Source: Spirochaetia bacterium (GTDB taxonomy: Bacteria; Spirochaetota; Spirochaetia; DSM-16054; Sediminispirochaetaceae). From it: a DNA stretch of 64,000 bases. Positions within the stretch are counted from its first letter, which is position 1, and each line of letters begins with the position of its first letter. The notes beneath the pieces are model-generated. The model was not told where the DNA came from and made no database searches. It saw only the letters and a program-made list of their open reading frames with translations. The DNA is taken from NCBI GenBank assembly GCA_034520965.1, contig JAXHMY010000002.1:512001-576000 (forward strand). The letters are read 5' to 3'. The position numbers and the translations under genes are program-made. Below, in pieces: positions 1-56,974 of the stretch.

Positions 1-237
1 GAAGGCGGCAGTGAGGGCCAGTACCCGGCCTCCGGTTGCGTACTTCCACTCCAAGGCCATTTGTTGCGTGCCGGGGGGCAGTTCTTCGGAAGTGGCTGAA
101 AACGGCTGAGCTGGGAGAGGCGCTGCAGCTGAATAGAGCCCCGAGAAATATAGTAAGAGCATTATCCCCCAAAAATATGATCCGGAAAAAGAGAGGCAGC
201 TGCGGGATATTTTCTTGCTATTATTGACTTTTCCCAT
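1..237 (-). CDS. Partial CDS (N-terminus) of a probably exported protein, possible PQQ-type beta-propeller repeat
   Basis: Manual translation from CAT at 235-237 is open to the window edge: MGKVNNSKKISR...FWGIMLLLYFSGLYSAAAPLPAQ...LEWKYATGGRV. Hydrophobic signal-like stretch plus a WKYxTGG motif. Confidence 0.5.
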   Translation of the reverse strand, partial: MGKVNNSKKISRSCLSFSGSYFWGIMLLLYFSGLYSAAAPLPAQPFSATSEELPPGTQQMALEWKYATGGRVLALTAAF

Positions 238-262
238 TTTCTTAAGTACCGTTATTGCGAAT

Positions 263-1213
263 ATGGACAGTATAGCCGCATACGCTCCCGGCCATGTGAC
301 CGGGATATTTTTTATTGACGACCTCGATACGGACCCTCTGAAACGCGGCTCCCTGGGGGCCGGATTCTCAATAGATTTTGGAGCGACTACCCGAATCTCT
401 GCTGAGGACAGCATACCCGAAACCGGGCTATCGAAGGCCGTCCCACGCTTTCTTTTAAATGGAAAGCCGAGCGAGCTGGATGTGTCGGCTGCCGTTTATA
501 CCCATTTTATAGAATCACAGCCGAATTTACCATACACAGGGCTGACAATTTCGCACAAGATCGATTTGCCCCAGGGCAGCGGTTTTGGTACCAGCGGGGC
601 TGGGGCCTTGAGTCTGGCGCTGGCTTTGAATAAGTGGTACGGCGAACCTTTTTCCAATGAAGAGGCTGCTCAGTTTGCCCATCGCGCCGAGGTTGAGTGT
701 AAAACAGGGCTGGGTACAGTGATCGGTGAGTACTATGGGGGGGTTGAGATACGAACAAGGACCGGAGCCCCGGGAATTGGCAAGGTCACTCAGATTCCCT
801 ATCCGAAGGACCTGCGGGCGGTGTGTGCCGTGCGCGGCCCCTATTCTACCAGCAAGGCTCTCTCTTCACCAGCGGTCCGGGACGTGGTGAACCTCCATGG
901 AAAGAATGCCCTCGACGGTCTCCAGCACGAACCGAGTGTGGGCAATTTTCTGCGATACTCCCGGCAATTTGCCGAGGGAACCGGTTTATTTACTCCCTGG
1001 ATAACGGATATTATAGAAGTACTTGACGCACACCATAGTATCGGCAGTATGTTAATGTTTGGGGAGGGAGTGTTTACACTGGCTCCGGCCGACAAGGCAG
1101 TCGAAATAGAAGCGGAGTTACGAAGCTACTGCGAAAGAACCGACAGCAGGGATAATCATAAGCCTGTAGTTTTTTCAGCAGGAATTAATAGTTCTGGAGG
1201 AACTTTACTTTAA
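263..1213 (+). CDS. Archaeal-type pantoate kinase (GHMP kinase family)
   Basis: Motifs AYAPGHVTGIF, GSLGAGF, LPQGSGFGTSGAGAL (GHMP ATP loop), AHRAEVECKTGLG. ATG at 263 preferred over TTG at 215. Coupled to the next gene by TAATG overlap. Confidence 0.88.
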   Translation: MDSIAAYAPGHVTGIFFIDDLDTDPLKRGSLGAGFSIDFGATTRISAEDSIPETGLSKAVPRFLLNGKPSELDVSAAVYTHFIESQPNLPYTGLTISHKIDLPQGSGFGTSGAGALSLALALNKWYGEPFSNEEAAQFAHRAEVECKTGLGTVIGEYYGGVEIRTRTGAPGIGKVTQIPYPKDLRAVCAVRGPYSTSKALSSPAVRDVVNLHGKNALDGLQHEPSVGNFLRYSRQFAEGTGLFTPWITDIIEVLDAHHSIGSMLMFGEGVFTLAPADKAVEIEAELRSYCERTDSRDNHKPVVFSAGINSSGGTLL

Positions 1214-1983
1214 TGGATATACATGTACCAAAAGATCATCCCCGTTACCAGTCTATAACCATCCGCGAAATGCTGGTAGAAATGGCCAATGCTTCCGTGG
1301 TTGCACCGGCCGGGCTGATTGCCCACGGCCGGGGAGAGGCGTTTGACTATCTGTTCGGAGAGGATACTCCACCGCCTGCCTATGAGGCCATTGAGGCATC
1401 CGCTGCGAGTCTACTGACCGCCGCCCATCCGGTGCTTTCGATTAATGGGAATGCCGCCGCCCTCTGCCCTCATCAGCTGGTGAAGCTTTCCGAAGTAAGC
1501 GGCGCTCCCCTCGAGATAAACCTGTTTTACCGTACCCTGGAGAGGGAACAGGCGATTGCCGAGGTGCTGTACGAATCCGGAGCTCAGGAGGTGCTTGGCG
1601 TCGGAGATGATGCATCCGAAACTATTTCCGAGGTCGGCAGCGAGCGCCGAAGGGTCGATCCGCGGGGTATCGGACGCGCCGATGTGGTATTTGTACCCCT
1701 GGAGGACGGGGACCGAACCGAGGGTTTACGGGGAATGGGTAAGACCGTGCTTACGGTCGATTTGAACCCCCTGTCACGTACCTCCCGCAAGGCCAATATC
1801 AGTATAGTTGATAATTTAATGCGAGCGGTTCCGCTTTTGACCGAAGCGGTAGAGAGGCTGAAGGGTCGGGACGAGAGGGAGCTAAAGAAGATAGTCAACA
1901 ATTTTAACAACAAGCGAAATTTGAAGGCGTGCCTCGATTTTATTGCCGATCGTCTGTACTCTTTCAGCTTTGAAGGAGAGTAG
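1213..1983 (+). CDS. Archaeal-type phosphopantothenate synthetase (4-phosphopantoate--beta-alanine ligase)
   Basis: Hallmark motifs HPRYQS..IRE, GLIAHGRGEAFDYL.GE, PVLSINGNAAAL, EINLFYRT, ADVVFVPLEDGDR, DLNPLSRT. Confidence 0.93.
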   Translation: MDIHVPKDHPRYQSITIREMLVEMANASVVAPAGLIAHGRGEAFDYLFGEDTPPPAYEAIEASAASLLTAAHPVLSINGNAAALCPHQLVKLSEVSGAPLEINLFYRTLEREQAIAEVLYESGAQEVLGVGDDASETISEVGSERRRVDPRGIGRADVVFVPLEDGDRTEGLRGMGKTVLTVDLNPLSRTSRKANISIVDNLMRAVPLLTEAVERLKGRDERELKKIVNNFNNKRNLKACLDFIADRLYSFSFEGE

Positions 1984-1985
1984 AG

Positions 1986-2801
1986 ATGGCTCCGAATAAA
2001 GTAAATGAAGTACCTCCGAATAAAGTAATTGACAGGCAAGAGTGGATAGATAAAAAAGCGGCGGGAGAGCGAATAACCATGTTAACCGCCTACGATGCGG
2101 CTTTTGCATCCCTTCTTTCTCAGGTAGACGGTCTGGATATGATTTTGGTTGGCGATAGCCTGGGGATGGTTATCCAGGGCCACGACACTACCAGAGCGGT
2201 TACTATGGAAGCGATGATCTATCATACCGAAATTGTTGCGCGGTCAAGCCGCGGGATTACGGTTATCGGCGATATGCCCTACCACAGCTTCGACACGGCG
2301 GATGAAGCCCTTATTAACGCCCGACGCTTGATGGAGGCTGGAGCCGCTGCGGTGAAGATCGAGGGCAACAAACCGGAGGTGGTCAGCCGTCTGGTTCAAT
2401 CCGGAATCCCGGTGATGGGACATTTGGGTCTGCTGCCGCAAACTGCCGAAGATTTTAAGGTCCAGGGAAAAGATACCGAGGCCGCCGACACCATTTTTAA
2501 AGATTCCCGGGAATTAGAAGCACAAGGAGCTTTTGCAATAGTGCTCGAGTGTGTGCCCCGCAGTCTGGCCCAAAAAATTACCGGGGCCCTTAAAATTCCC
2601 AGTATCGGGATCGGTGCCGGCCCCGATTGTGACGGGCAGGTGCTGGTTCTGCACGATATGTTAGGTTTGTCCCAGGGCTACTCGCCGAAGTTTGTGAAAC
2701 GCTTTGCCCAATTAGATTCCGCAGTGATTAAGGCGGTGCAAAGTTACAGCGACGAAGTAAAATCCGGCAGCTTTCCCACCGACCCTTATTCGTACCACTA
2801 G
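1986..2801 (+). CDS. panB: 3-methyl-2-oxobutanoate hydroxymethyltransferase
   Basis: MLTAYDA, ILVGDSLGMV, GDMPY, VKIEG, PVMGHLGLLPQ, IGIGAGPDCDGQVLV. Confidence 0.97.
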   Translation: MAPNKVNEVPPNKVIDRQEWIDKKAAGERITMLTAYDAAFASLLSQVDGLDMILVGDSLGMVIQGHDTTRAVTMEAMIYHTEIVARSSRGITVIGDMPYHSFDTADEALINARRLMEAGAAAVKIEGNKPEVVSRLVQSGIPVMGHLGLLPQTAEDFKVQGKDTEAADTIFKDSRELEAQGAFAIVLECVPRSLAQKITGALKIPSIGIGAGPDCDGQVLVLHDMLGLSQGYSPKFVKRFAQLDSAVIKAVQSYSDEVKSGSFPTDPYSYH

Positions 2802-2859
2802 GGTGGTACCATTGGGTTTTGTTAGTTTTGTGGGCGTAGGAGAGCAGGAGGGCAGATAA

Positions 2860-4197
2860 TTGACTGAAGAGATACAAGGATTTCAAGCTGAAGGCTCTGC
2901 GGCTCAGAGGCCTCAGAACAAGAGCCTGCCATCAAAGGGTCGTCCGGCGGATGAAGTATCCGCGTTGGTAGCACAGCGCCTCTCCGGCGACCTTACATTT
3001 ACCTCCGGAAATATCCTCGGCTCAATGTGCAGTCAGCCCCACCCCTTTGGAGCCGACATTTTTCAGCAAGAGTTAGCAAAGAATATAGGCGACCCCGGGC
3101 TTCATCCGGCTTTGGCGGAGATGGAGGCGGAGACAATACACATACTGGGCAGCCTGTGTGCAAACCCCGAGGCTGTCGGCAGTATCGTCACCGGCGGGAC
3201 CGAAGCAAACCTGTTGGCTATGTGGACCGCCAAAAACAGTGCCCCAAAAGAGCGTCGAGAGGTGGTGCTGCCGGAGACGGCTCACTTTTCCTTCGACAAA
3301 GCCGCCAGTTTGATGGACCTGACCCTAGTAAAAATTCCAGTAGACCCACACAACCGTGTTAAATTAGATGAGTATCGTCAGGCGGTGGGACCTCGGACTA
3401 TGGCTCTGGTGGCAATTGCCGGAACCACCGGGCTCGGGGCGGTTGATCCGATTGCTGAGATTGCCAACGTCGCCGAAGAGCATAACTTGTACCTGCATGT
3501 GGATGCGGCCTTCGGCGGGTTTGTCCTGCCCTTTTTAGAGGCTGCAGGATATCAGGCAGATAGTGCGCCGGATCAGGGAGCCTTCGATTTTAGCCTTGCA
3601 GGTGTCAGTTCAATTACCCTCGATCCCCACAAGATGGGCAGAACTCCAATTCCGGCCGGCTGCATACTCTACCGCAACGAAAAGATTGCAGGCTCAAGCA
3701 CTACCCGAGTCTCCTACCTGGCTGGAGGCAAAACCCGGCAAAGAACCATTGTAGGTACCCGCTCCGGCGCGGCGGTAGCGGCGGTATGGGCCAGTCTGCA
3801 GCATATCGGCTTTGACGGATACCGCGATACGGTGCGCTGGTGTATGGAGAACACCTATTTTCTGAAAAAAAGAATTGATGCAATGGCAGGCATAGAAACA
3901 GTAATGCCTCCGGTGATGAACGTACTGGGAATTCGCCCTAGCCAAGGTACCGCAGAGAAGTTATCCGAGGCCCTGCGCGCCCGCGGTTTTGCGCTATCCC
4001 TTTTTCCGGGCTTTTTGCGAGTTACCCTGATGCCGCACTTGAATCAAAGCCATCTGGAGAACTTTTTAATGGTGCTGGAAGCGACATTAAATGAGATGCA
4101 AAAGGAAGAGTCCGGCCCCGGAGAAACTGGCCCCGAGTCCAGTCGCGGGCACAACAGCCGCTTACACAGGAACCAAGGAGAAAATAATGCAGGGTGA
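2860..4197 (+). CDS. mfnA: Group II PLP-dependent decarboxylase, MfnA (tyrosine/aspartate decarboxylase) type; probable beta-alanine source
   Basis: ILGSMCSQPHP, NIGDPGL.P, GGTEAN, AHFSFDKA, HVDAAFGGF, ITLDPHKMG..PIPAG (PLP lysine), GTRSGA. SD AGGAGG upstream of the TTG start. Confidence 0.85.
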   Translation: MTEEIQGFQAEGSAAQRPQNKSLPSKGRPADEVSALVAQRLSGDLTFTSGNILGSMCSQPHPFGADIFQQELAKNIGDPGLHPALAEMEAETIHILGSLCANPEAVGSIVTGGTEANLLAMWTAKNSAPKERREVVLPETAHFSFDKAASLMDLTLVKIPVDPHNRVKLDEYRQAVGPRTMALVAIAGTTGLGAVDPIAEIANVAEEHNLYLHVDAAFGGFVLPFLEAAGYQADSAPDQGAFDFSLAGVSSITLDPHKMGRTPIPAGCILYRNEKIAGSSTTRVSYLAGGKTRQRTIVGTRSGAAVAAVWASLQHIGFDGYRDTVRWCMENTYFLKKRIDAMAGIETVMPPVMNVLGIRPSQGTAEKLSEALRARGFALSLFPGFLRVTLMPHLNQSHLENFLMVLEATLNEMQKEESGPGETGPESSRGHNSRLHRNQGENNAG

Positions 4198-5527
4198 TCA
4201 ATCTCATTCAAATCAGCCTTTTTTTACTTACCCTGAACAGGCGGTCGCCCCTCCTAATGGGGCGGCCTCCCCGTTGGGGAAGCATCCGTCAAAAGATATT
4301 CTCGGTTCTATCTCGAGTGCTCTAGGTGGAAAGAAAGTTGCCCTTGGAATTACCGGCAGTGTGGCGGCCGTGCGCAGCAGTGAGGTAGCCCGGATGCTGA
4401 TGCGCTACGGAGTGGAAGTGTTTCCGGTGATGAGTCCAGAGGCGACCCGTATCATTCACCCGAACTTGATGGAGTGGGCAACCGGGAACCCTGTGATAAC
4501 CAGCCTCAGTGGTTCTATAGAGCATGTAGCCTTAGCGGGGAATGTTGAAAATCGGGTAGATGCAGTGCTAATAGCACCATCTACCGCCAACACCCTGGGA
4601 AAAATTGCTGCCGGAATTGACGATACGCCGGTTACCACTTTGGCAACCACCGCAATCGGCCAGGGAATACCAATGCTGATTGTCCCTGCGATGCATGAAC
4701 CTATGTATTACCATCCGGCGGTAAAACGAAACATTGAGGTGCTAAAAAGCGACGGTATCCATGTGCTTATGCCTAATGTCTCAGAAGGAAAGGCTAAAAT
4801 TCCGGAAACCGAAGAGATTGTTTTTCGAACGATTGATTTGCTGCGCGGCGACGGCCCCCTGGCCGGCAGCAATTGGGTGGTGACGGCCGGACGCACGGTA
4901 GAATACCTCGATCCCATCCGGGTGCTTACCAATAACAGCAGCGGAAAAATGGGGATAGAAATTGTAAGAGCCCTTTATCTGGCCGGGGCAGGCGTGCAGT
5001 TAGTCTACGGTAAGGGTAACGCTGAACCGGTGCCAAATGTTCCCACACACTATGTAGAGACAGCCGCACAAATGCTGGATACAGTGAAAAAACTGTTACA
5101 GGACCAAAAGACCGACTGCCTGGTAGCGGCAGCGGCGGTCGGTGATTGGCAGTCCTCGGACCGGGCTGCCGATAAAATCAGCACCCACGGTACCGACAAG
5201 CTTAAAGTAGAATTAGTTCCTACTCCAAAGATCATCGACCAGGTAAAGGAGATATCTCCCCACACCTTTTTAGTTGCCTTTCGGGCCCTTTTTCAGAAAA
5301 CGAAGGAAGAGATGGCGTCGGATGGACTGGCCCGCATGAAAAAAGCCAAAGCGGATATGATAGCAGTAAACGATGTCGGGGCGAAAGGCTCGGGTTTTGA
5401 AACCGCCACCAACGAGCTGCATCTGTTTGACTCCGCCGGCGGACGGACGCACATTAAACTATCCACAAAGTTTCAGGCGGCGGAACAGTTAATAAAGGTG
5501 GTTGCGGCTCAGTTAGGGCGCGTTTAA
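4187..5527 (+). CDS. coaBC: Bifunctional phosphopantothenoylcysteine decarboxylase/synthetase
   Basis: GITGSVAA, APSTANTLGKIAAGIDD, PAMHEPM, TAGRT.E.LDPIR.LTNNSSGKMG, AAAVGD. ATG at 4187 with SD AAGGAG. Confidence 0.96.
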   Translation: MQGDQSHSNQPFFTYPEQAVAPPNGAASPLGKHPSKDILGSISSALGGKKVALGITGSVAAVRSSEVARMLMRYGVEVFPVMSPEATRIIHPNLMEWATGNPVITSLSGSIEHVALAGNVENRVDAVLIAPSTANTLGKIAAGIDDTPVTTLATTAIGQGIPMLIVPAMHEPMYYHPAVKRNIEVLKSDGIHVLMPNVSEGKAKIPETEEIVFRTIDLLRGDGPLAGSNWVVTAGRTVEYLDPIRVLTNNSSGKMGIEIVRALYLAGAGVQLVYGKGNAEPVPNVPTHYVETAAQMLDTVKKLLQDQKTDCLVAAAAVGDWQSSDRAADKISTHGTDKLKVELVPTPKIIDQVKEISPHTFLVAFRALFQKTKEEMASDGLARMKKAKADMIAVNDVGAKGSGFETATNELHLFDSAGGRTHIKLSTKFQAAEQLIKVVAAQLGRV

Positions 5528-5545
5528 GTACGCCTAGGAGTACGC

Positions 5546-6070
5546 TTAGGCCCGGAGAAACTCATCGACAATAGAGTCGACATCATCCTGTTCAATATCA
5601 AACTGCCTTTCGAAGGCCAGTTCCTGGTTCGCTTCACGAAGCTTCTTTAGCAGACTATACACGGTTACCATTAAGATCTTATTACCGGTGGTAGGATACT
5701 TTTTAATAAATTGCATAAAATTGCCGCGTGTAATATGCAGCAATGCGGTGCTTGTTAAACTGTTTACATTGGCTGTGCGTTTTACCTTCATAAACATACC
5801 GGCCTCGCCGAATACTTCCCCGCTGCCGATGGTGCAAATATAGACGTTTTTACGCCGCCCTTCCCCTACAGCTACTTCAACGGAACCGCTAATTACTCCA
5901 TAAAAGGCCTGCTCCACCTCGCCCTGCTGTACGATGCGCTCACCCTCTTCAAAGACTTGTATTTCGCACATCCTGAGCAAATCTTCAACTTCCCGTTCGC
6001 TTAGAAACTTGAACAGCAAGATATCCCTAATACTGGCCCGATATTGATCGGTATTATTATCAACGTACAT
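5546..6070 (-). CDS. Cyclic nucleotide-binding domain protein (no HTH seen)
   Basis: GERIVQQGE, FYGVISGSVEV, GEVFGEAG, RTANV. Start chosen at ATG 6070 with SD GAGGGG. Confidence 0.85.
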   Translation of the reverse strand: MYVDNNTDQYRASIRDILLFKFLSEREVEDLLRMCEIQVFEEGERIVQQGEVEQAFYGVISGSVEVAVGEGRRKNVYICTIGSGEVFGEAGMFMKVKRTANVNSLTSTALLHITRGNFMQFIKKYPTTGNKILMVTVYSLLKKLREANQELAFERQFDIEQDDVDSIVDEFLRA

Positions 6071-6144
6071 AAAACGTCCCCTCTTGTACAAAATGCCTCA
6101 CAAAATGCCTCATAAACGCCTAAAGTGTAGCGTATTCAGCTGTT

Positions 6145-6867
6145 CTACGCAAGAAAGCGACACTCTGTTTTTAATGGACATTTAGAACATTTTTGATTTT
6201 TAGCGGTGCAATACCTTTTTCCATGTTCTACCAACAGGGCATGGAACTCGTTGTATACTTCGGCATCGACCGGTAATTCCGCCTGGAACTTAGCCTGCAA
6301 CCCCATGTAGGTCCACTCACCCTCCTCTGATCCGCTCCGGTACTCGAGGCGATTAAAAATTCTCATACTGTACGCATCTACCACACAAACCGGATAATTA
6401 AAGGCATATAGAAGAATGGAATCAGCCGTTTCCGGGCCTATGCCCCAGATTGCTAAAAGTTCCTTCCGACCAGGGGGCGTCTCATTGGCCGCACCTCGCG
6501 CCAGAAAAAAATCGGCAGTAGTTTTTAACTTTTTCGCCTTTTGGTTGTAATACCCGCTCGAACGTATCAAAGCGGCCAGGTCAGTGTGCTCGGCTGCACG
6601 GAAAAACTCCGGGCCGAAGGGACAATTCTCCAGCAGGGTCGTTAAACTACTACGTACATTGGCCCAGTTTGTATTTTGTGTGAGAATAGCTCCGGTAATA
6701 ATTTCAAAGCGCTCATTCGAGCTCAGTTCAAGGGAGTACACGCCGGGGTGGTAGCCCTCTTGGGTATAGCCGGGTCGGGAGTTACGCTGCAGCAGCGGCC
6801 ACCATCCCTGAGCTCCATATGCATTTAGCAGGCGTTGGTATACATTGTAACTGTTCATTTTTTCCAT
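6145..6867 (-). CDS. Endonuclease III-related HhH-GPD protein
   Basis: YG.QGWWP, GAILTQNTNW, SGYYNQKA, WGIGPETADSILLYA, C-terminal CTAK..KCSKCPL..EC Fe-S motif. Confidence 0.88.
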   Translation of the reverse strand: MEKMNSYNVYQRLLNAYGAQGWWPLLQRNSRPGYTQEGYHPGVYSLELSSNERFEIITGAILTQNTNWANVRSSLTTLLENCPFGPEFFRAAEHTDLAALIRSSGYYNQKAKKLKTTADFFLARGAANETPPGRKELLAIWGIGPETADSILLYAFNYPVCVVDAYSMRIFNRLEYRSGSEEGEWTYMGLQAKFQAELPVDAEVYNEFHALLVEHGKRYCTAKNQKCSKCPLKTECRFLA

Positions 6868-6886
6868 CTTTAAAGGTTTGTATTTT

Positions 6887-6910
6887 AAAAAAGAGGCCCT
6901 TGCAGGCCTC
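6887..6910 (-). terminator. Rho-independent terminator downstream of ppdK
   Basis: Minus strand GAGGCC-TGCAAG-GGCCTC followed by TTTTTT. Confidence 0.65.
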
Positions 6911-7000
6911 CTGTTAAGTAATTCTCTTTATAAAAACCTTTTACATTTTTACACAATGCTGAAATTGTGTCTTAAACTGTGGACCACAGAGCCCCTGCTG

Positions 7001-9670
7001 CTAATCGTTCAGCAAATCCTCTGCTACCGCTTGCGCTGCGGCCAAACGGGCAATCGGAACCCGGTAGGGGGAGCAGGAGACATAGTTGAGTCCATTGCGG
7101 TAACAGAACTCGATGGACGAAGGATCTCCTCCGTGCTCACCACAGATACCCATTTTTAGGTCTTTCTTTGTGGCCCGGCCCTTCTCAACCGCCATCGTAA
7201 TCAGCTGGCCGACTCCAGCCTGATCTATACTCTGGAAGGGGTCGTAGGGCAAAATGTTCTGATCCAGGTATTCGGCTATAAAACTGCCGATATCGTCACG
7301 GGAGTATCCAAGGGTCATCTGAGTCAGGTCGTTGGTACCAAAGGAGAAAAAGTCCGCATCTTCGGCAACTTCATTCGCTGTCAGAGCGGCCCGGGGAATC
7401 TCGATCATGGTTCCGATCTTATAGGCCAGGCTGCTGTTGTTTTTCTTCAACACATTCTGCACAACCGTCTCTGCATTCTCACGCAGCACCTTCAGCTCCA
7501 TTTTGGTACCCACCAGGGGAATCATAATTTCCGGAAGAACCTTTACGCCCGCTTTCTCAACCTCACAAGCAGCTTCCATAATTGCCTCAACCTGCATATC
7601 GTAGATCTCAGGATACGTTATTCCCAGGCGGCAGCCGCGGTGACCGAGCATAGGATTCATCTCTTTGAGGTCTTCCGCCATATTCTTGATAGATTCCGGC
7701 TTCAAGCCCACCTTATCGGCAAGCTCTTTAATGTCCTCATCTGTTTTCGGTACAAACTCGTGGAGCGGCGGATCCAGCAGCCGCACGGTAACCGGTAACC
7801 CTTCCATTGCGTTAAAAATACCCACAAAATCTTTTTGCTGCAAAGGCAGCAGCTTATCCAGGGCTTTCTGTCGGGCCTCTTTACTTTCGGCCACAATCAT
7901 CTCCTGAAAGATTTCCAGTTTCCCCACGTCAAAGAACATATGCTCGGTCCGGCACAGGCCGATACCTTCAGCGCCTAATTCCCGGGCCTTCTTTGCATCT
8001 CCGGGAGTATCGGCATTGGTGCGTACACCAAAACCTTTCTCCTTCACGCTCTTACGTTTATCCTTGTATCTGACATCATCCGCCCACAGCAGGAACTTCT
8101 CCAGGTCGGTGGTAATCTGCGGATCGACCAGATCGATCTGCCCTTCGTACACCTCGCCGTCGGTTCCGTCGATGGTCATCCAGTCGCCCTCATTGTAGGT
8201 CTTACCTTCAATTTGCAGTGTACCGCTGCTTACCACAGCTGCTTTACAGCCGGCTACACAAGGTTTACCCATTCCGCGGGCAACAACCGCTGCGTGGCTG
8301 GTCATTCCACCGGTCGAGGTAAGAATTCCTTCGGCTGCATGCATGCCTCCGATATCTTCGGGGGAGGTTTCTTTGCGGACCAACAGCACTTTCTTGCCCT
8401 GTTTTACCCATTCCTCCGCCTCATCGGCGGTAAATACGATTTGCCCGGTAGCTGCACCCGGGGAAGCGTTCAGCCCTTTGGCCAAAACATTAAGTTTTCC
8501 CTTTGAGGATGGTTCGATCCGGGGGTGAAAAAGCTGATCAAGCTGCTTTGGGGTAACCCGGCCAACCGATTCTTCTTCAGTGATCATTTTCTCTTCGACC
8601 ATGTCTACTGCAACCTTAATGGCCGCCGCACCGGTTCGCTTTCCGTTACGGGTCTGCAGCAGGAAGAGATTTCCCTGTTGAATAGTAAACTCAATGTCCT
8701 GCATATCCCGATAATGCTGTTCCAACCGGTCTTTAATTGTAAACAGTTGTTCATAGATTTCTGGGTTAATTTCTTTCAAATAGGAAAGGTTTTTAGGAGT
8801 CCGGATACCTGCAACAACATCCTCACCCTGGGCGTTCTCAAGGAACTCGCCAAAAAAGACTTTCTCACCAGTAGAGGGGTCGCGGGTAAAGGCAACGCCG
8901 GTACCGGAATTCTCGCCGAAGTTACCGAATACCATGGACTGGACGTTAACCGCGGTTCCCAACAGTCCAGTAATATCGTTGATTTTTCGGTATTTAATGG
9001 CCTTTTCGTTCATCCAGCTGCCGAGGACCGCATTGATCGATTTATACATCTGGTCCTTCGGATCCTGGGGAAAATCCTCGCCCTGCTGCTCTTTGTAAAC
9101 CCGTTTGTACACTTCAACCAGTTTTTTCAAATCCTCTGCATCCAAATCGGTATCCAGTTCGACACCCTTGGCTTTCTTCGCTTTTTCCAGTTCACCCTCG
9201 AACAGCTGCAGGTCCAAACCCATAGCGACATCAGAGAACATTTGGATAAAGCGACGGTAGGCATCCCAGCCAAAACGCTCGTTTCCCGTCTTTTTGGCCA
9301 GGCCGGCTACCGCATTGTCGTTAATGCCGAGGTTGAGAATAGTATCCATCATACCGGGCATAGATTGAGCAGCACCTGAACGTACGGACACCAACAGGGG
9401 ATCATCATGATCACCGAGCTTTTTGCCCATCATCTTCTCTAGCTTTTCCAGGTTTGCATCAATCTCAGCCTCTAATCCTTCCGGATACTGCTGGTTTTTT
9501 TCATAATAAATTTTACACACCTCTGCTGAGATGGTGAAGCCCGGCGGCACCGGCACCCCAAGATTCGTCATTTCAGCTAAGTTGGCGCCCTTGCCGCCGA
9601 GAAACTCCTTCATTCCGGAGTTGCCCTCAGCTTTTCCTTCGCCAAAAAAATACACTAACTTCTTTCCCAT
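7001..9670 (-). CDS. ppdK: Pyruvate, phosphate dikinase
   Basis: LGGKGANLAEM, PLLVSVRSGA..SMPGMMDT, GGMTSHAAVVARG (phospho-His), GIGLCRTEHMF, FSFGTNDLTQ; 889 aa. Confidence 0.98.
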   Translation of the reverse strand: MGKKLVYFFGEGKAEGNSGMKEFLGGKGANLAEMTNLGVPVPPGFTISAEVCKIYYEKNQQYPEGLEAEIDANLEKLEKMMGKKLGDHDDPLLVSVRSGAAQSMPGMMDTILNLGINDNAVAGLAKKTGNERFGWDAYRRFIQMFSDVAMGLDLQLFEGELEKAKKAKGVELDTDLDAEDLKKLVEVYKRVYKEQQGEDFPQDPKDQMYKSINAVLGSWMNEKAIKYRKINDITGLLGTAVNVQSMVFGNFGENSGTGVAFTRDPSTGEKVFFGEFLENAQGEDVVAGIRTPKNLSYLKEINPEIYEQLFTIKDRLEQHYRDMQDIEFTIQQGNLFLLQTRNGKRTGAAAIKVAVDMVEEKMITEEESVGRVTPKQLDQLFHPRIEPSSKGKLNVLAKGLNASPGAATGQIVFTADEAEEWVKQGKKVLLVRKETSPEDIGGMHAAEGILTSTGGMTSHAAVVARGMGKPCVAGCKAAVVSSGTLQIEGKTYNEGDWMTIDGTDGEVYEGQIDLVDPQITTDLEKFLLWADDVRYKDKRKSVKEKGFGVRTNADTPGDAKKARELGAEGIGLCRTEHMFFDVGKLEIFQEMIVAESKEARQKALDKLLPLQQKDFVGIFNAMEGLPVTVRLLDPPLHEFVPKTDEDIKELADKVGLKPESIKNMAEDLKEMNPMLGHRGCRLGITYPEIYDMQVEAIMEAACEVEKAGVKVLPEIMIPLVGTKMELKVLRENAETVVQNVLKKNNSSLAYKIGTMIEIPRAALTANEVAEDADFFSFGTNDLTQMTLGYSRDDIGSFIAEYLDQNILPYDPFQSIDQAGVGQLITMAVEKGRATKKDLKMGICGEHGGDPSSIEFCYRNGLNYVSCSPYRVPIARLAAAQAVAEDLLND

Positions 9671-19684: not shown

Positions 19685-20171
19685 TGTAATTCTGCAACCT
19701 TTCTTCTAAAAATCGAGCCCCTACCGGTATGATCTGCTGAAGAAACCGTGCCAGAAAACTCTCCTCCAGAAAGGGGCGTACTTCAACAACCGTTTGCAGC
19801 TGCAATACAAATACCAGCAGCGCCAGCACAAGAAACCCCTCAATCAGCCCCAGAAAAAAGCCCAAGGCCTGGTCGAGTTTCTCAAGTTCCACTCGCTCAA
19901 TCACGCGATGGAAGGTCGACTCTATTATTTTGATGAATGCGTAACCGACTAAAAAAATCAGCAGAAAAGAGATAATCGGAGTCCACAGATTATTACCGAT
20001 ATAAGGAGCTAACACGGGAGAGAGGGTTGCCGTAAAAACCACTGCCGCCGCCACACCGGTAATTAGTGCCAAGGCAGAGAGAAACTCCGCTACAAAACCG
20101 CGAAAAGTACAGCGTATCCCCGCGGCCAGTAGAATCAGGATACCAATTACATCGAATACGGCTAAACTCAT
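19677..20171 (-). CDS. cvpA: CvpA family membrane protein
   Basis: D..GILI, RGFVAEFLS, LDQALGFFLGLIEG; four hydrophobic segments. Confidence 0.85.
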   Translation of the reverse strand: MSLAVFDVIGILILLAAGIRCTFRGFVAEFLSALALITGVAAAVVFTATLSPVLAPYIGNNLWTPIISFLLIFLVGYAFIKIIESTFHRVIERVELEKLDQALGFFLGLIEGFLVLALLVFVLQLQTVVEVRPFLEESFLARFLQQIIPVGARFLEERLQNYSV

Positions 20172-21304
20172 TGTGAGCCTCTCTCTGAGAGTGCATGGGA
20201 ATAAATTAACTCAGCCATCCGGCGGGCCGCATCTGCCGGGCAAAGTTCAGCGGCCGCCTGCCCCATTGCCCTGCGTTCACCTTCATTCTGCAGCAGACGA
20301 TGTATATGCTCAAGCAGGGCCTCCGAACTAAGGGAATCGCCCTCCAGCATCACCGCCGCTCCCCGCTCTGCAAACAGCCTGGCATTTCGGACCTGGTCTC
20401 CCCTTGAACTCTCCCCGCCCAGGGGAATAAGGATCGATGCTTTCCCCAAGGTCCCCAACTCCCAGAGAGTGCCGGCTCCGGCCCTGGAGATAATCACATC
20501 GGCTGCAGCCAAAATATGCGAAAACTCCCCATGAAACAGCGCCGCGGTAATATAACGCGGATCTGAAGAGGGTTCATAATCGAGCTCTCCCATCTGATGC
20601 ACTACCAGCGCCTGCTCTAAAAGTTGAGGCAGAATCGCTTTCAGCATACGGTTTACCTGGCGCGCCCCCTGGCTGCCGCCCAACACCAACACAAGAGGCT
20701 CGGCTTCAGGCAGCCCAAGCAGTTCCCTACCCCGGGCCGCATCCCCGGAAAACAGCTCTTCCCGCACCGGATTACCGGTTACTACTACCCGGCGTTGCTT
20801 CGTACTGTGACCCTCCCCGGAGGCTTTGGAAAAGTGTTCAACCCGGGTGGCCTCATAGGGAAGTAGAATTAAATCGGCAAAGCGGGCTGCAATCCGGGTT
20901 GCTAAACCGGGGTCGCGGTCCGATTCATGGGTAAGAATAGGAATGCCCAGGATACGCGCAGCTATCACCGGGGCTACCGCCACGTAGCCTCCCTTCGGAG
21001 AACAGAACTCCCGGCCTTTAGCTTTTTCAGTAGGCGGATAGAGACAATGACTCCGGCGGCAAGCTTAAAAATATCCAGAAAAATTCTGCAAAGAAAAATA
21101 GCGCCTCAGTTTTCCGGAGGGCACCGCATAGTAAGGAACATCGAAACGACGAGTGATGTCCCTCTCTATCTGTTTGCCTGAACCAATCCATACAAGCTCC
21201 AGTTCAGTTGAACCGCCGATTTTTTTCAGCTGATCGATTACTGCTATTCCGGGAAACACATGCCCGCCGGTTCCCCCGCCGGTACATGCTATTGTTACTG
21301 CCAC
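20168..21304 (-). CDS. murG: Undecaprenyl-PP-MurNAc-pentapeptide GlcNAc transferase (frame broken by about three single-base insertions near 20997-21085)
   Basis: N-term TGGGTGGHVFPG and SGKLRRY; C-term HESD..PGLA, TGNPVR, GGSQGA, SRAGAGT, DQVRNA. Removing three extra bases restores FSKGGYV. Confidence 0.92.
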
Positions 21305-21437: not shown

Positions 21438-21443
21438 ATAGGT

Positions 21444-21535
21444 GCTGTTGTGGGGTGGTTCGTAAAAAGTGCGAGCCTGAGAACATACCCGTCGAACCTG
21501 AATCTGGATAATACCAGCGCAGGGATCAGGACAGA
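21444..21535 (+). promoter_or_regulatory. TPP riboswitch
   Basis: GGGGTG...CTGAGA..ATACCC..GAACCTGAATCTGGATAATACCAGCGCAGGGA upstream of a thiamine ABC transporter. Confidence 0.93.
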
Positions 21536-21605
21536 CCAGGCTGTTCCCCCTCAAACAGAAAAAACATTTTTTCGTTACTATTTTTCTCGTTAGAAGGAGC
21601 ATGCC

Positions 21606-22661
21606 ATGAAAAAAATTCTTATCGGTGCAATAGTAATTGTTGCACTCGCAACTGCAGCGGCCATTCTCTTCACTCCTGGTACAAGTGAAGCAGAGAGCCA
21701 GGACGAAGGCCGGACAACTGAAGCGGAAGAGCTGCTTGTGTACGCCTACGATTCATTTGCCTCAGACTGGGGGCCGGGCCCCGAAATAAGCGACCGCTTC
21801 GAACAAAAACATGGAATCCCGGTGCGCCTGCAATCGGTTGGTGATGCCGGACAGGTGTTGCAGAAGGCCATCCTGGAGAAGGATGACCCACAGGCGGATA
21901 TTTTAATCGGGATTGACAACAACCTCATCACCCGGGCCAAAAGCGAGGATGTGCTGGAAGCCTACACCTCGCCCAATCTGGAAAAGGTACCTCAAGACCT
22001 GGTATTTGATCCACAGCATTACGTAACCCCCTATGATTACGGCTATTTTTCCATCATCTACGATACGGAGAAAATTGATAATCCTCCCACGAGTCTGGAA
22101 GACCTCACGGACCCACGTTTTGAGGATAAACTCATTTTGATGGATCCCCGAACCTCCAGTCCCGGACTGGGTTTCCTGATGTGGACCATTTATGCCTATG
22201 GCGATGAGTTTACCGAGTATTGGGAGCAACTTCAGAGTTCAATCCTTACCATTTCCGAGGGCTGGGATTCCGGATACGGCCTGTTTACCAGCGGCGAAGC
22301 TCCGCTCGTGCTAAGTTATACCTCCAGCCCCGCTTACCATGTTGAGTATGAAGACTCTCAGCGTTATCAGGCCGCACTGTTCGAAGAGGGACATTACATG
22401 CAGATTGAAGGTGTGGGCGTGGTAAAAGGCGCTCCCCATCCTGAAGCTGCTAAAAAGTTCATCGATTTCGTGCTTACCCAAGAATTCCAAGAAGTAATTC
22501 CACTTACCAACTGGATGTACCCGGTACTGCCGGAGATTGAGCTGCCCGAATCGTACGATTTTGCCCCGCAACCGGTAAATCGGTTCTATTTTGAAGCCGA
22601 GCAGATCGATGCCAACCGTGACCAGTGGATCGATAGCTGGTCACGGGCAGTAACCCGCTGA
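21606..22661 (+). CDS. thiB: Thiamine ABC transporter substrate-binding protein
   Basis: VYAYDSF.SDWGPGP, ADILIGIDNN, PYDYGYF, DPRTSSPGLGFL, VLSYTSSPAYH, YMQIEG, NWMYPV. Confidence 0.93.
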   Translation: MKKILIGAIVIVALATAAAILFTPGTSEAESQDEGRTTEAEELLVYAYDSFASDWGPGPEISDRFEQKHGIPVRLQSVGDAGQVLQKAILEKDDPQADILIGIDNNLITRAKSEDVLEAYTSPNLEKVPQDLVFDPQHYVTPYDYGYFSIIYDTEKIDNPPTSLEDLTDPRFEDKLILMDPRTSSPGLGFLMWTIYAYGDEFTEYWEQLQSSILTISEGWDSGYGLFTSGEAPLVLSYTSSPAYHVEYEDSQRYQAALFEEGHYMQIEGVGVVKGAPHPEAAKKFIDFVLTQEFQEVIPLTNWMYPVLPEIELPESYDFAPQPVNRFYFEAEQIDANRDQWIDSWSRAVTR

Positions 22662-24347
22662 TGCACCTGCCGTCAGCCCGTTCGTGGGAAAGGCCGCATC
22701 CGGCCTTTCTCACTCTGCTTCTGTTTTTAGCCTTATTCTTCTATCTGCCGATTGGAAGTGTCCTGTTAAAAGGGTTTTTCCCTAAGGGCAGTTTCGACCC
22801 CTCGGTATTTATAGATACAGTCACTTCCCCCTACACCCTGCGTATTCTATGGTTTACCTTCTTCCAGGCAATTCTGAGTACCATATTTTCACTTATGCTG
22901 GGATTACCCGGTGCATATTTACTGTCTATGTATACCTTTCCCGGCCGCAGATTGGTGAGGGCCGCCTCGGGTGTCCCCTTTGTGCTTCCTCCGATTTTAG
23001 TGGTACTGGGATTTGTGATTTTCTTCGGGAACAGCGGGCTGCTCAATTCTGTACTGATGCGGGTATTTGACCTTTCCGAGCCCCCCCTCCGGGTGCTCTA
23101 CAGCTTAAAGGCGATTATTCTTGCCCACGGATTTTATAACTTTCCAATTGCATTGCGGCTAATTGCATCCCTCTGGCAGCAGCTTCCACCCTCCCAGGAG
23201 TGGGCCGCCCAAACCTTGGGAGCCCCCCGACGCCGTTTGTTTTTCACTATTATTTTGCCGCAGCTGATGCCGGCCATCCTCGCCGCTTCGGCACTTATTT
23301 TTATGTTCTGCTTTACCAGTTTTGCTATTATACTTGTACTTGGCGGGGGACCGCAATTCACCACTGTTGAGGTAGAAATCTACCGACTGGCTAAAACCTC
23401 ATTCGACATACCCGCCGCCGGTGCCCTATCGATTATAGCCCTGGTGCTTACCCTCGGTATTATGGGGATATATGTGAAGCTGCAGAATAAAATGGCCTTT
23501 CACCAGGAACTCGCCTCCGGTCCGGTGCGGCCCCGCAGTTATAATCGCCCATCCAAAACCGGTTTTATTGGTATTGCAGCCTATATTGCCGCGATGCTGC
23601 TGATAGTCGCCGGACCGCTGATAGCAGTAGTGGTCCGGTCATTGCAAAAACCGGTAACCCGGGCCGGTGAACTGCGCTTTACCCTGGAATGGTATCAGCA
23701 GCTGTTTAGCTCCGGGGCAGGTCAGTTTGGCCGGATTGCCCTGCCGGCTATCCGTAACAGTGTCCTCATCGGAATTATAGCTGCAGCGGCGGCAGTTGTA
23801 GTGGGGACAGCTTTGAGCTATCTAACTGTTCGGTACCGGCTCAAGCTCGGCAGGTTAATCGATACGCTTTCGATGGCCCCATTGGCTATTTCTTCCGTCA
23901 TTTTAGGACTCGGCTATTTTCTCATTTCCCGAAGCATCCCCGATTTAGGACGTGCCAGAATCTTCATGATTGTTGCCGCCCATGCCGTAATTGCCTATCC
24001 CTTTGTAGCCCGAACCGTAAGCTCAGTACTAAAGAAAATCCCCCCCAGCCAGTTGCAGGCTGCAATGCTGTTGGGTGCCTCGCCGGGAAAGGTGTTTCGC
24101 ACAATTGAGCTTCCCATAATGCTGCCGGCCCTTGCAGCGGCGGCAGCATTTGCCTTTGCAATATCATTACGGAGAGATAAACGCTACCTTGGTGTTTTCA
24201 TCCTCAACAGTGACAATACCATTAGCTATTTATCGCATGATCGGCTCGTATAATTTTTTTGGCGCCTGTGCTTTAGGCACTATTCTCGTGGCGGTATGCG
24301 CCCTTGCATTTACCCTGTTCGATGTCTCGGGTAATACGGAAATTTAA
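22661..24347 (+). CDS. thiP: Thiamine ABC transporter permease (apparent extra base near 24170)
   Basis: FTFFQAILST, PFVLPP, ILAHGFYNFP, two EAA-like loops; C-terminus GEINAT..TIPLAIYRMIGSY continues in another frame. Confidence 0.88.
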
Positions 24348-24376
24348 AAAAAGAGAATTATTAAGGAGTAGCTTTG

Positions 24377-25388
24377 ATGGAACTGACAACCCGGAATCTG
24401 AAGCGCAGTTTTGCCGATTTTACCTTTGATGCCGATATTCATGCGGCAGAGGGCGAGCTGGTGTGCCTGTTCAGGCCCCTCCGGCTGCGGTAAAACCACC
24501 GGACTACAGCTAATTGCCGGCATTATGGCACCTGACCATGGCAGCATATATTTAGGACAGCGGGAGATCACCACTCTTCCACCATGGAAGCGAAACATCG
24601 GACTGGTGTTTCAAGACTACGCCCTTTTTCCACATATGACCGTGTATGAGAATATTGCCTATGGGCTAAGACAGCAGGGTGCCTCCAAGCACTCCATCAC
24701 TTCGCGGGTTGAAGAGCTGTTGGATCTGGTGGAATTACCCGGTTATGCCCAACGCCGCCCAGAACAGCTTTCAGGCGGGGAGAAACAGCGGGTTGCCCTG
24801 GCGCGGGCAGTGGCGCCGTCTCCGGCCCTGCTGCTGCTGGATGAACCCTTATCGGCCCTTGATGCGCGGCTGCGCACCCAGCTGCGCCGTGAGATCAGAA
24901 ATATTCAAAAAAGAATCGGTTTGACCACCATTTATGTAACCCACGATCAGGAAGAGGCCCTCAGTCTAAGCGACCGGATTATTGTAATGCAGAACGGTAC
25001 TATCCAGCAAAGCGGAACTCCACAGGAGCTGTACAACAGCCCGCTAAATGAGTTTGTTGCCCGCTTTATCGGAAACTCCAATTTGGTACCCTGCGACGAA
25101 CAAGGGGGTAGCGGCCGGGAGTACTACTTTTTCCGCCCCGAGGACACCGGTATACGTAATTGTTCGACAGAGAGTTCCGATACACTCTCTTTTCCGCTTA
25201 GCCTTAATTCCCTGGAATACGTAGGCCCTTATTACATACTAGAAGGGGTAAAACGGGAGTACAGTGTACGCGCCCATGCCAATGAGGAGGACCTCAATGC
25301 ACTGAATATATCGGACTTCTCTCCTGAGAACCCGCCGCAGCTGTGGTTCTGCATTGAGCGGAGTAAGACAAAGGTAATCCCGAAATGA
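24377..25388 (+). CDS. thiQ: Thiamine ABC transporter ATP-binding protein (frameshift near 24470)
   Basis: ATG 24377 with SD AAGGAG (MELTTRNLKRSFADF); GPSGCGKTT, LSGGEKQRVALARA, LLLDEP, VTHDQEEA. Confidence 0.85.
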
Positions 25389-25391: not shown

Positions 25392-27002
25392 TTAAAGGTA
25401 ATTTATTAACACCACTTGTACCGCGCCTATAAAAAATCCGAGCAGCGCTCCAAACAGTATTATCCATCGCAGATGTGTTTTTATTACAATTAAAATAAGC
25501 CCTTCTACTTTCTCTATATCCAGGCTGTTTACCTTATCGACAACCAAAGTCTGGACGTCCACGCTCTCTAAAATAGAGGGAGCCTGTTCATCGAGGAGCT
25601 GCAGGATAAAACTCTCTAAAGCTGTATCGATGCGCTGTTTGTGCACCTCCTCAAGCTGGAGAATTTCACTAAAACTCTTGCGTCCTGTATTAGAGAGAGT
25701 GTTAAACATGGTCCGAAAAAAGTCCATGGTTGAGGCATCTTTTCTTTCCACCTCACGTACGAGCTTGGCAATCCAATCTGCAATGCGGCCGCTAAGGTCT
25801 GAAGTGGAATGGCCGGTAAACTCCTCCAGTACCGCCCCAATTTCTTGCTCGCCGTACTTCTGTACCAGCCGCTGCACCAGCCCCTGCATCCATTGAACCG
25901 TAGTTGGAGAAGAGCTTATTTTAAACAGAGCATCTACGGCAAGACGTATATCATTCGGCAGACTCTCGCCCCACACGCCTGCAATATCCGCCAGGGTATG
26001 AGTGCGCATGCGCTGCAGCCAACTCTCCAGGGCATCCAAGAGTTTCCCGCGAGTCTCCTCATCTGCTATTGCCGTTTCCAACTGTTCCAACAAATCATCA
26101 ACTATCTCATCCATCTGCTGCTCTATATTGCGATTGTACTGCCCGGCTGCCAAAAAGAGTCGCTGCAGACTGCTGAGACGGGAAATCATCTTTCTAAGTA
26201 TAGTTTTGCCCTTCAGCTCTATGGTCTTGTGGATGTGAGGAGTACGAAGAAAATACAGAACCTCCCGGGCAAAAGAAGGATACACACGGTTAAGGGCTTT
26301 CACAATTCCCTCAATAGCTTGAGGAGTGAGAAAACGCTCTAGTGAGGCATTCCGCCGGATTCCATCTTCCACCAGCTCTCCGGCTAACTGCCGCAGGGGC
26401 TCGCGCACACTGCTGATACGCAAGTTTTGGCTAAAAAACATGCTAATCCTCTCGCCGTCGCTTCCGCAAAGTATACGCAGCTTCAGATGAAAAAACTTAT
26501 CCAATGCCAAGGCAATCGATTTTTGAAGGGCAATAATGAAACTCTCGGAGCGAAAGAATGCGGTAAGGATCGATTGAATTAGAAGTGTATCCGCAGGCTT
26601 ATCCCGGTCCGACTCTCGGTACTCTTCTACTTCCTTTGGCCGGCCTTTTCGAAACTTTTGCTGTAATTGGATAAAGGGTGTATGCATCACGAATCCGGTA
26701 AATTCACTCACCCTTATCCTGAGAGTATCTTTAAAAGTGGGTGATGATATCTGCCGTCGAATTGCATCCTCGGTAATCAGCTCTCGGGACACCATCAGCC
26801 CTATACTTTCGGCTAATTTCTCGCGCTGACGGGGTATAATTCCGGGAGTAAAGGGAAGCTTTATAGGCCCGATATATTTGGCCCGCAAAGGCCGAAACAG
26901 CATTTTAATGGCGATATCATTGGTGATATAGCCGATCATCGCACCGACCACCGGAGGTAATATCCAGGCAGAGTAGCTCAGTATGATTTCCAGGTTGATC
27001 AT
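25392..27002 (-). CDS. DUF445 family membrane-anchored protein
   Basis: GAMIGYITNDIAIKMLFRP, TPGIIPR, C-terminal LRWIILFGALLGFFIG. Confidence 0.85.
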   Translation of the reverse strand: MINLEIILSYSAWILPPVVGAMIGYITNDIAIKMLFRPLRAKYIGPIKLPFTPGIIPRQREKLAESIGLMVSRELITEDAIRRQISSPTFKDTLRIRVSEFTGFVMHTPFIQLQQKFRKGRPKEVEEYRESDRDKPADTLLIQSILTAFFRSESFIIALQKSIALALDKFFHLKLRILCGSDGERISMFFSQNLRISSVREPLRQLAGELVEDGIRRNASLERFLTPQAIEGIVKALNRVYPSFAREVLYFLRTPHIHKTIELKGKTILRKMISRLSSLQRLFLAAGQYNRNIEQQMDEIVDDLLEQLETAIADEETRGKLLDALESWLQRMRTHTLADIAGVWGESLPNDIRLAVDALFKISSSPTTVQWMQGLVQRLVQKYGEQEIGAVLEEFTGHSTSDLSGRIADWIAKLVREVERKDASTMDFFRTMFNTLSNTGRKSFSEILQLEEVHKQRIDTALESFILQLLDEQAPSILESVDVQTLVVDKVNSLDIEKVEGLILIVIKTHLRWIILFGALLGFFIGAVQVVLINYL

Positions 27003-27020
27003 TTACAGCTCCACCAAAAA

Positions 27021-27422: not shown

Positions 27423-27462
27423 CTCTGTTGCAAAACACCTCAAAACAGTTCAGCATTGTCGT

Positions 27463-28041: not shown

Positions 28042-28066
28042 CACTCTATTATGTAGTATGTGAGTA

Positions 28067-28927: not shown

Positions 28928-29066
28928 CTTTAAAAACAAATTTTCAAGACAGCCGGAAGAGGCCTGAGCCGGCTTCATTCATTTACAGGCATGAACAATT
29001 GTTTTTTACATGCTGCTGCGGTATATTAACACTATGCTAATCAAATTCCCTCTGCCTAAGACCTTT

Positions 29067-31072: not shown

Positions 31073-31076
31073 ACTG

Positions 31077-31331: not shown

Positions 31332-31332
31332 T

Positions 31333-55694: not shown

Positions 55695-55695
55695 T

Positions 55696-56971: not shown

Positions 56972-56974
56972 TTA

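Follow-up and report, generated by a model that had tools for sequence, protein, structure and literature searches.

A cassette of five genes in a genome of the Sediminispirochaetaceae (Spirochaetia bacterium, assembly GCA_034520965.1, contig JAXHMY010000002.1) is predicted to lead from 2-oxoisovalerate and aspartate to 4'-phosphopantetheine with the steps in the archaeal order, and it is likely to be of archaeal derivation; judging from the sequences, we would give this reading a probability of about 0.8. The cassette lies near the start of the window that we analyzed, a stretch of 64,000 nucleotides corresponding to bases 512,001 to 576,000 of a 611,713-base contig, and codes in order for homologs of pantoate kinase (PoK) and of phosphopantothenate synthetase (PPS), for the ketopantoate hydroxymethyltransferase PanB, for an MfnA-type pyridoxal phosphate (PLP)-dependent decarboxylase, and for a fused CoaBC. 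The use of PoK and PPS has long been regarded as a dividing mark between archaea and bacteria, the Entoporibacteria (PMC7883664) being the only exception that we found in print. The exception now becomes family-wide and stably inherited in free-living spirochaetes. The borrowed unit also exceeds the two signature enzymes, since it takes in a CoaBC of the archaeal fused type, a PLP-dependent source of beta-alanine, and a distinctive PanB.

The five genes are tightly packed and co-directional on the forward strand (positions 263 to 5527; Table 1), and the ORF (open reading frame) listing combined with a reading of the junctions reproduces to the base the spacings given in the original prediction. 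PoK and PPS overlap by 1 nucleotide, PPS and PanB are set apart by 2 nucleotides and PanB and MfnA by 58, and MfnA and CoaBC overlap by 11. The two overlaps and the 2-nucleotide gap suggest, by way of translational coupling, that the five genes may be carried on a single transcript. Family scans of the flanking genes identify a cyclic-nucleotide (cNMP)-binding protein, an HhH-GPD glycosylase, pyruvate phosphate dikinase, and an RpoD-family sigma factor, with a DinG/YoaA helicase, an NtrC-type regulator and its kinase, HolB, MurG, UvrB, HtrA, and RNase HI as further bacterial neighbors; the sigma factor, murG, and NtrC, on which the earlier description of the flanks as plainly bacterial had drawn, are all among them.

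Table 1. Features of the cassette in the window and of related cassettes in other lineages (KPR, ketopantoate reductase)
Record	Feature	Position	Strand	Details
Window	Upstream intergenic stretch, presumed operon promoter region	180..262	.	Role taken from position only
Window	PoK homolog, GHMP kinase superfamily	263..1213	+	316 amino acids; likely start ATG 263, longest frame from TTG 215
Window	PPS homolog (4-phosphopantoate--beta-alanine ligase, phosphopantothenate synthetase)	1213..1983	+	256 amino acids; PF02006
Window	PanB, ketopantoate hydroxymethyltransferase, "cassette" lineage	1986..2801	+	271 amino acids; TIGR00222
Window	MfnA-family PLP-dependent decarboxylase, predicted aspartate 1-decarboxylase	2860..4197	+	445 amino acids; TIGR03812; start TTG 2860 with GGAGG ahead
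Window	CoaBC, fused phosphopantothenoylcysteine synthetase/decarboxylase, archaeal-type	4187..5527	+	446 amino acids; TIGR00521; likely start ATG 4187 with AAGGAG ahead, longest frame from 4091
Cloacimonadota (L023)	PoK-PPS-KPR-PanB-MfnA-CoaBC			
Cloacimonadota (L023)	KPR inside cassette	5750..6643		
Heimdallarchaeota (three loci, L079 and others)	PoK-PPS-PanB-KPR-MfnA-CoaBC			CoaBC past the end of one locus
Heimdallarchaeota (L079)	KPR inside cassette	6594..7529		
Nitrososphaera	PoK-PPS-PanB-CoaBC			
Bathyarchaeia	PPS-KPR-PanB-PoK			
Bathyarchaeia (L028)	KPR inside cassette	5773..6687		

Family scans agree with the identities proposed earlier for all five products. PPS matches PF02006 at 238.6 bits (cut-off 26.4) and NF010324 at 347.5 bits (cut-off 227), and aligns end-to-end, over residues 3 to 255, with the structure 3wdk in the PDB (E 4.5e-71). 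PanB is recovered by PF02548 at 325 bits and by TIGR00222 at 290.6 (cut-off 207.55), and the decarboxylase by TIGR03812 at 409.8 bits (cut-off 299.4), together with the PLP decarboxylase domain PF00282 at 110 bits. CoaBC matches TIGR00521 at 329.3 (cut-off 219.7) and shows the fusion of a flavoprotein domain (PF02441, 97 bits) with a DFP domain (PF04127, 164.8 bits). The PoK homolog belongs to the GHMP kinase superfamily (PF00288, GHMP_kinases_N, 44 bits with a cut-off of 22.3), and its best NCBIfam matches are two pantoate kinase models, NF041122 at 149.3 bits and NF040725 at 123.6 bits. When compared with solved structures, it is closer to a characterized PoK than to any other GHMP kinase: the best match is the Thermococcus pantoate kinase (6jbc, E 9.3e-39, residues 20 to 296), and mevalonate kinase follows at 7.6e-5. 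Its Gly/Ser-rich, phosphate-binding motif GSGFGTSGAG is conserved over 50 aligned rows. Of the residues that we take to be important in the Thermococcus enzyme, the columns of Ser104, Glu134, and Arg155 are kept in the window, and that of Asp143 has Thr.

With the activities predicted from these families, PanB would convert 2-oxoisovalerate to ketopantoate, which a reductase encoded elsewhere in the genome, either IlvC or the product of a KPR-like gene of contig 3, would turn into pantoate. PoK would then produce 4-phosphopantoate, and PPS would condense it with the beta-alanine that the MfnA-type enzyme might release from aspartate, giving 4'-phosphopantothenate. Cysteine addition and decarboxylation by CoaBC would lead to 4'-phosphopantetheine, from which the bacterial-type CoaD and CoaE would complete coenzyme A (CoA). 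CoaD, CoaE, and IlvC were all recovered elsewhere in the genome by six-frame searches. We infer that the MfnA-type enzyme is an aspartate 1-decarboxylase feeding CoA synthesis because of the operon context, the failure of our searches to find PanD, and a Thermococcus precedent, the MfnA-family protein TK1814 being, according to excerpts from PMC10102598, the only aspartate decarboxylase that T. kodakarensis has. We propose that the cassette replaced, or stood in for, the route through PanC, PanD, and pantothenate kinase (PanK). The search of the remaining genome for panC, panD, and coaA or coaX that the original prediction had called for came out in line with this proposal: six-frame family searches of the 3.35-Mb assembly (nine contigs, metagenome-style, 85.9% complete, 2.85% contamination) found no PanC (PF02569), CoaX (PF03309), PanD (PF02261), or CoaA (TIGR00554), type II PanK (PF03630) not being among the families searched.

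The cassette is not peculiar to this genome; it is found through the family and in at least three further spirochaete families, and it is already in public genome records. PPS is present in 17 of 41 genomes of relatives, our own included, and in 14 of the 16 other genomes of the family, while an even sample of the Spirochaetota yields it in 6 of 301 genomes (again with our own), spread over four families. The five genes stand in this order also in G010, which is a single contig of 4.65 Mb, in G011, G016, G186, and G320, and in named metagenome-assembled genomes of Sediminispirochaeta and Sediminispirochaetaceae, at 54 to 95% identity. PanC is found in five of the 41 relatives, none of them with PPS, and in none of the 17 family genomes; the PoK/PPS route complements a class in which most of the sampled genomes are without PanC. 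Full-length matches to a fused CoaBC were found in 15 of the 16 family relatives; in other families they were confined to G031 and G032, two genomes that carry PoK or PPS. CoaX is found in 16 of 24 genomes of other families and in 5 of the 16 family relatives, 4 of which also have PPS. The earlier suggestion that the five-gene arrangement was undescribed in spirochaetes stands to the extent that we found no paper joining pantoate kinase or phosphopantothenate synthetase with spirochaetes, and has to be given up to the extent that the arrangement is common in the family and on public record.

Two variants within the class were observed beside this pattern. In G004, G005, G007, and G011, all of the same family, PPS is accompanied by CoaX, a type III pantothenate kinase, and no PanC was found; these are draft genomes in which contamination is possible. 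Taken at face value, these genomes would hold a putative salvage kinase beside the archaeal de novo route, and the coexistence of both routes is said to be undescribed in the excerpted text of PMC7883664. The other variant is a 1.5-Mb genome of the same class, G032, in which PoK is directly followed by CoaBC (L099, contig 2, positions 4588 to 6796) and in which no PPS, PanC, or CoaX was found. This pair would fit a kinase that also takes pantothenate.

Several comparisons with known systems place the spirochaete cassette. In T. kodakarensis, for which structures of PoK (6jbc/6jbd) and PPS (3wdk to 3wdm) are available, the same two enzyme families are found, with full-length alignments to those of the window. 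The archaeal pathway too has a fused CoaBC and an MfnA-family source of beta-alanine, and lacks PanC and PanK, as far as the excerpted descriptions go. The present case differs in that the host is bacterial, the genes form one operon, and bacterial-type CoaD and CoaE are present rather than the archaeal last-step enzymes; the spirochaete PoK is distantly similar to the archaeal one (E 9e-39) and has Thr in place of Asp143. According to excerpts from PMC6650551, the archaeal route involves PoK and PPS, with phosphorylation before condensation, and a distinct archaeal enzyme for beta-alanine, and PoK and PPS are termed unique to archaea. That bacterial versions had been reported sporadically, as in Poribacteria, is borne out by PMC7883664 (Thomes and Lescure 2020), in the excerpted text of which Entoporibacteria (sponge-symbiont "Candidatus Poribacteria") are described with PoK and PPS replacing PanC and PanK, with bacterial CoaE, CoaBC, and PanB and without a classical KPR, and horizontal transfer is argued; we found no other exception in print. 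Like that group, the spirochaetes have PoK and PPS instead of PanC and PanK, along with a bacterial CoaE, a PanB, and a CoaBC, and they belong to another phylum; the excerpted text reports neither an operon nor an MfnA-type decarboxylase there. It places the Entoporibacterial sequences nearer to Euryarchaeota, whereas the neighbors of the spirochaete ones are Nitrososphaerota, Bathyarchaeota, and Cloacimonadota. The two acquisitions are likely to be of separate origin, Poribacterial sequences not being among those in our trees. With the same route already in print for one other bacterial group, ours is a sound but incremental case.

The five-gene unit also recurs in Cloacimonadota and in archaeal lineages. 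Among the 80 best PPS loci from a species-level genome collection, 60 are archaeal, 11 are from spirochaetes, 8 are from Cloacimonadota, and 1 is labeled Saccharibacteria. In the Cloacimonadota and Heimdallarchaeota cassettes (L023 and L079), the common genes follow one another as in the window and share one strand, and the Cloacimonadota PanB falls in the same clade; identity to the window is 36 to 58% for Cloacimonadota and 33 to 53% for the Heimdallarchaeota loci with MfnA (L079, L081, and L084). Both include ketopantoate reductase, whereas the spirochaete cassette is without it. This agrees with the earlier remark that the reductase is the sole step for which the cassette has no gene. The KPR of these cassettes and of the Bathyarchaeia one (L028), of about 300 amino acids, matches ApbA and ApbA_C in all three cases tested, and the six-gene unit with KPR would cover every step from 2-oxoisovalerate and aspartate to 4'-phosphopantetheine. 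The canonical panB-panC-coaC-coaB-coaX cluster of other, PanC-bearing Spirochaetia (e.g., G022, contig 46) leads to the same end product and has a PanB as well. It differs in possessing PanC and a type III PanK instead of PoK and PPS, in having coaC and coaB as separate genes whose products are 28 to 37% identical to the CoaBC of the window, and in a PanB that belongs to another clade. In the record labeled Candidatus Saccharibacteria (L072), PPS sits on a long branch inside a Thermoproteota group, which would mean either that a contig from an archaeon was mis-binned or that bacteria acquired the gene a further time.

Phylogenetic analysis points to a single origin of the spirochaete PoK and PPS and to their archaeal affinity. 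In a concatenation of the two proteins with 50 rows and 571 columns, analyzed by a quick search, the 18 spirochaete rows all fall together in a single clade with a support of 95 in the SH-like approximate likelihood ratio test (SH-aLRT). Its neighbor is a group (83) made up of Cloacimonadota, Nitrososphaerota, and Bathyarchaeota, and an Asgard clade lies apart, the root not being established. This concatenation supersedes a single-gene PPS tree, in which the deep nodes are unresolved and the spirochaete rows fall into several weakly placed groups. Constraining Spirochaetota and Cloacimonadota together lowers the log-likelihood by 4.2 units, with p 0.24 in the approximately unbiased (AU) test, and a single entry into bacteria therefore stays compatible with the data. 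In the CoaBC tree, built from 48 rows by a careful search, one side (100/99) consists of eight sequences of ordinary bacteria (Bacteroidota, Bacillota, Actinomycetota, and Pseudomonadota), and the spirochaetes and the Cloacimonadota, supported at 100/99 and 100/100, are placed among the archaea, which form one clade in none of the 200 bootstrap trees tallied. On this basis, the CoaBC of the cassette is of the archaeal type. A PanB clade with SH-aLRT 99 unites the copies that 12 spirochaetes, 4 Cloacimonadota, 5 Bathyarchaeota, and 1 Promethearchaeota carry in their cassettes, apart from all other PanBs, including those of cassette-less spirochaetes and of six ordinary bacteria. The nearest nonspirochaete MfnAs by identity are those of Cloacimonadota and archaea at 33 to 42%, and the best decarboxylases in a plasmid collection are at most 31.5% identical to the MfnA-type protein. 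The G+C content of the cassette, 53.3%, is no outlier with respect to a genome mean of 48.4% (standard deviation, 4.2), 9.8% of equal-sized windows being as high, and its residence would therefore be old. Taken together, these findings point to a probable, ancient acquisition of the cassette from archaea, with retention by the whole family. We propose that it entered the Spirochaetota once, from an archaeon or via another bacterium that had received it from archaea, and was then inherited within the family. The proposal of a transferred cassette is supported by PoK, PPS, and CoaBC, whose branches fall beside or inside archaeal ones; of the trees that had been asked for gene by gene, those of PanB and MfnA do not add to it.

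A number of observations weigh against this reading. The PoK homolog is below the NCBIfam equivalog cut-offs of both pantoate kinase models (500 for NF041122 and 380 for NF040725), and its column for Asp143 has Thr, a residue found in every row from spirochaetes (18) and Cloacimonadota (3), the 29 archaeal rows being divided into 14 with Thr, 14 with Asp, and 1 with Ser; PPS, at 292.5, is just under the cut-off of 300 for the archaeal equivalog NF041123. Neither a promoter nor a terminator can be assigned to the putative operon: positions 180 to 262 contain no sigma-70 consensus match or Rfam element, a promoter scan of positions 1 to 6200 gave one promoter-like site where 4.6 were expected and none upstream of PoK, and the terminator-like matches of the same stretch are all inside genes. 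A completeness of 85.9%, along with frame breaks, means that the absence of PanC, PanD, CoaA, and CoaX is not proven, and the candidate reductases themselves are broken: the sole KPR-like gene found (contig 3, about 518,608 to 519,450) is in three frame pieces, and IlvC (contig 8, 103853 to 104795) is split over two frames. With regard to the origin, the trees were drawn from the 80 best PPS loci, without Euryarchaeota and Poribacteria, and are unrooted or rooted on a small outgroup. The single-gene PPS tree settles neither the monophyly of the spirochaete sequences nor the donor, the PanB tree does not separate archaea from bacteria and gives no domain of origin, and the MfnA tree, with three archaeal homologs and four bacterial decarboxylases added, has branches of 4 to 5 changes per site and a nonmonophyletic outgroup and likewise gives no origin. 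The test that speaks for the archaeal placement of CoaBC, in which forcing all bacteria together lowers the log-likelihood by 19.4 with AU p 0.024, gave a modest value and was framed after the tree had been seen. For the kinase, which is the weakest of the five predicted gene calls, both models look lineage-specific by their names (panto_kin_Thplsm and panto_kin_Meth), and the cut-off miss would therefore speak against membership of those two equivalogs and not against the fold or the probable function. The sharing of Thr by all spirochaete and Cloacimonadota rows and by 14 archaeal ones suggests a trait of a Nitrososphaerota/Bathyarchaeota-like branch, with no sign of decay.

The uncertain rooting leaves some room for a transfer in the reverse direction, in which the cassette, or its PanB, MfnA, and CoaBC, moved from bacteria into Bathyarchaeia, Nitrososphaerota, or Asgard lineages, or for vertical ancestry with heavy loss. 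The free mixing of bacteria and archaea in the PanB tree, the Spirochaetota-Cloacimonadota clade that the AU test does not reject, and a base composition that speaks of old residence would all be in keeping with such a history; however, the predominance of archaea among the best 80 PPS loci and the nesting of the spirochaete CoaBC in archaeal branches, with ordinary bacteria as the outgroup, make it unlikely. A different order of steps is also conceivable, in which the PF02006 ligase joins beta-alanine to free pantoate and the GHMP kinase then phosphorylates pantothenate, or in which the kinase takes both substrates, so that the two would act as a nonhomologous PanC/PanK pair or serve in salvage as well. 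The Pfam name of PF02006, "Phosphopantothenate/pantothenate synthetase," allows for this, and the PoK of G032, next to CoaBC with no PPS, PanC, or CoaX found, fits a kinase acting on imported pantothenate. The Thermococcus enzymes, in contrast, have reportedly been characterized with the pantoate-first order, and the genes for PoK and PPS, which overlap by a base here, are adjacent in every locus of the family, as expected of consecutive steps. The excerpts from PMC6650551 place phosphorylation before condensation as well, and we consider the alternative order quite improbable. As to the assembly, its metagenome-style character, incompleteness, contamination, and frame breaks in several genes are what might be expected if an archaeal fragment had been misjoined to, or misbinned with, a spirochaete contig. 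Against this, the cassette sits about 512 kb into the contig amid bacterial genes, the same cassette is present in 14 of the 16 other family genomes, including one that is a single contig, and the spirochaete sequences form clades of their own and are 35 to 60% identical to archaeal ones. In addition, a short-read contig of 2175 nucleotides from run X1 spans positions 80 to 2254 of the window with six differences, beginning in the upstream gene, crossing PoK and PPS, and ending within PanB; as X1 may be the source sample, this bridge is independent of the assembler and not of the sample. Reads of X1 and X2 on the cassette leave single bins without cover, and X3 and X21 gave only pieces 90 to 95% alike, which come from relatives. 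The confirmation of the junction by reads that had been called for was obtained in this way for the upstream side. A chimeric join to an archaeal contig can hardly be credited in view of the X1 bridge and the family-wide presence of the cassette.

If the archaeal-order pathway is accepted, the reductase step deserves separate consideration. The search for panE or ilvC elsewhere in the genome was successful in that a KPR-like gene and IlvC are both present, and fell short in that neither is intact. IlvC can perform ketopantoate reduction in some bacteria, according to the excerpted text of PMC7883664. Intact KPR-like frames of 310 to 358 amino acids are found in all five relatives searched, and a tblastn search of our genome for the KPR type that its nearest relatives (G002 and G007) carry returned no ortholog. 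In a short-read contig of run X1, 2 nucleotides are inserted precisely where the KPR-like frame first breaks; the second break is without read cover, and X2 gave nothing at this gene. Further genes of the window are broken up or shortened: YifB is divided between two adjacent frames (38827 to 40409, reverse strand), the MurG frame (20168 to 20983, reverse strand) covers model positions 106 to 353 only, its N-terminal part missing, and the HtrA frame (37447 to 38196, reverse strand) begins at model position 109, also without its N-terminal part. Given the X1 insertion and these split genes, we think that many of the frame breaks are indel errors of the assembly, and such errors may lie behind a completeness of 86% despite only nine contigs.

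A broader scenario, which we offer tentatively and which may well prove wrong, is that of a transferable "phosphopantetheine island," with KPR in its fuller form, that crossed from archaea to bacteria as one piece, CoaBC and the supply of beta-alanine included. It would have entered the Spirochaetota once and the Cloacimonadota in the same or a linked event, making prototrophs of pantothenate-dependent lineages and removing the feedback point at PanK. Independently of this scenario, genomes missing PanC and PanK should not be scored as pantothenate auxotrophs on that basis. Because PanK is the usual feedback point in bacteria, while the archaeal control acts on KPR and not on PanK (both according to excerpts from PMC6650551), the bypass of PanK makes one ask by what means these spirochaetes control CoA synthesis. 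The family genome G010 is complete in one contig; should it derive from a cultured isolate, the pathway would be open to direct testing.

A few further observations concern the cassette in other material and the rest of the window. In X21, an RNA library labeled as a salt lake metatranscriptome, contigs match positions 1116 to 2304 and 4750 to 4989 at 90 to 95% identity, covering parts of PoK, PPS, PanB, and CoaBC; a relative's cassette is present in that library, which is no proof of its transcription. The cNMP-binding protein directly downstream of the cassette (5546 to 6091) is a stand-alone version on the opposite strand, and a class IV adenylate cyclase (CyaB) is encoded 43 kb from the cassette (48533 to 49066, reverse strand). 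Two runs of ORFs, at 25392 to 35003 and 51864 to 60568, are without an NCBIfam match at E 1e-10, and one of them contains a weak caspase-like domain at 29010 to 30041. A scan of the whole window with Rfam gave only a tRNA and a thiamine pyrophosphate (TPP) riboswitch, both far from the cassette. The riboswitch (21441 to 21543, forward strand) scores 54.4 bits, which equals the gathering score, and precedes a thiamine-type ABC transporter operon (21606 to 25388, forward strand), an ordinary arrangement.

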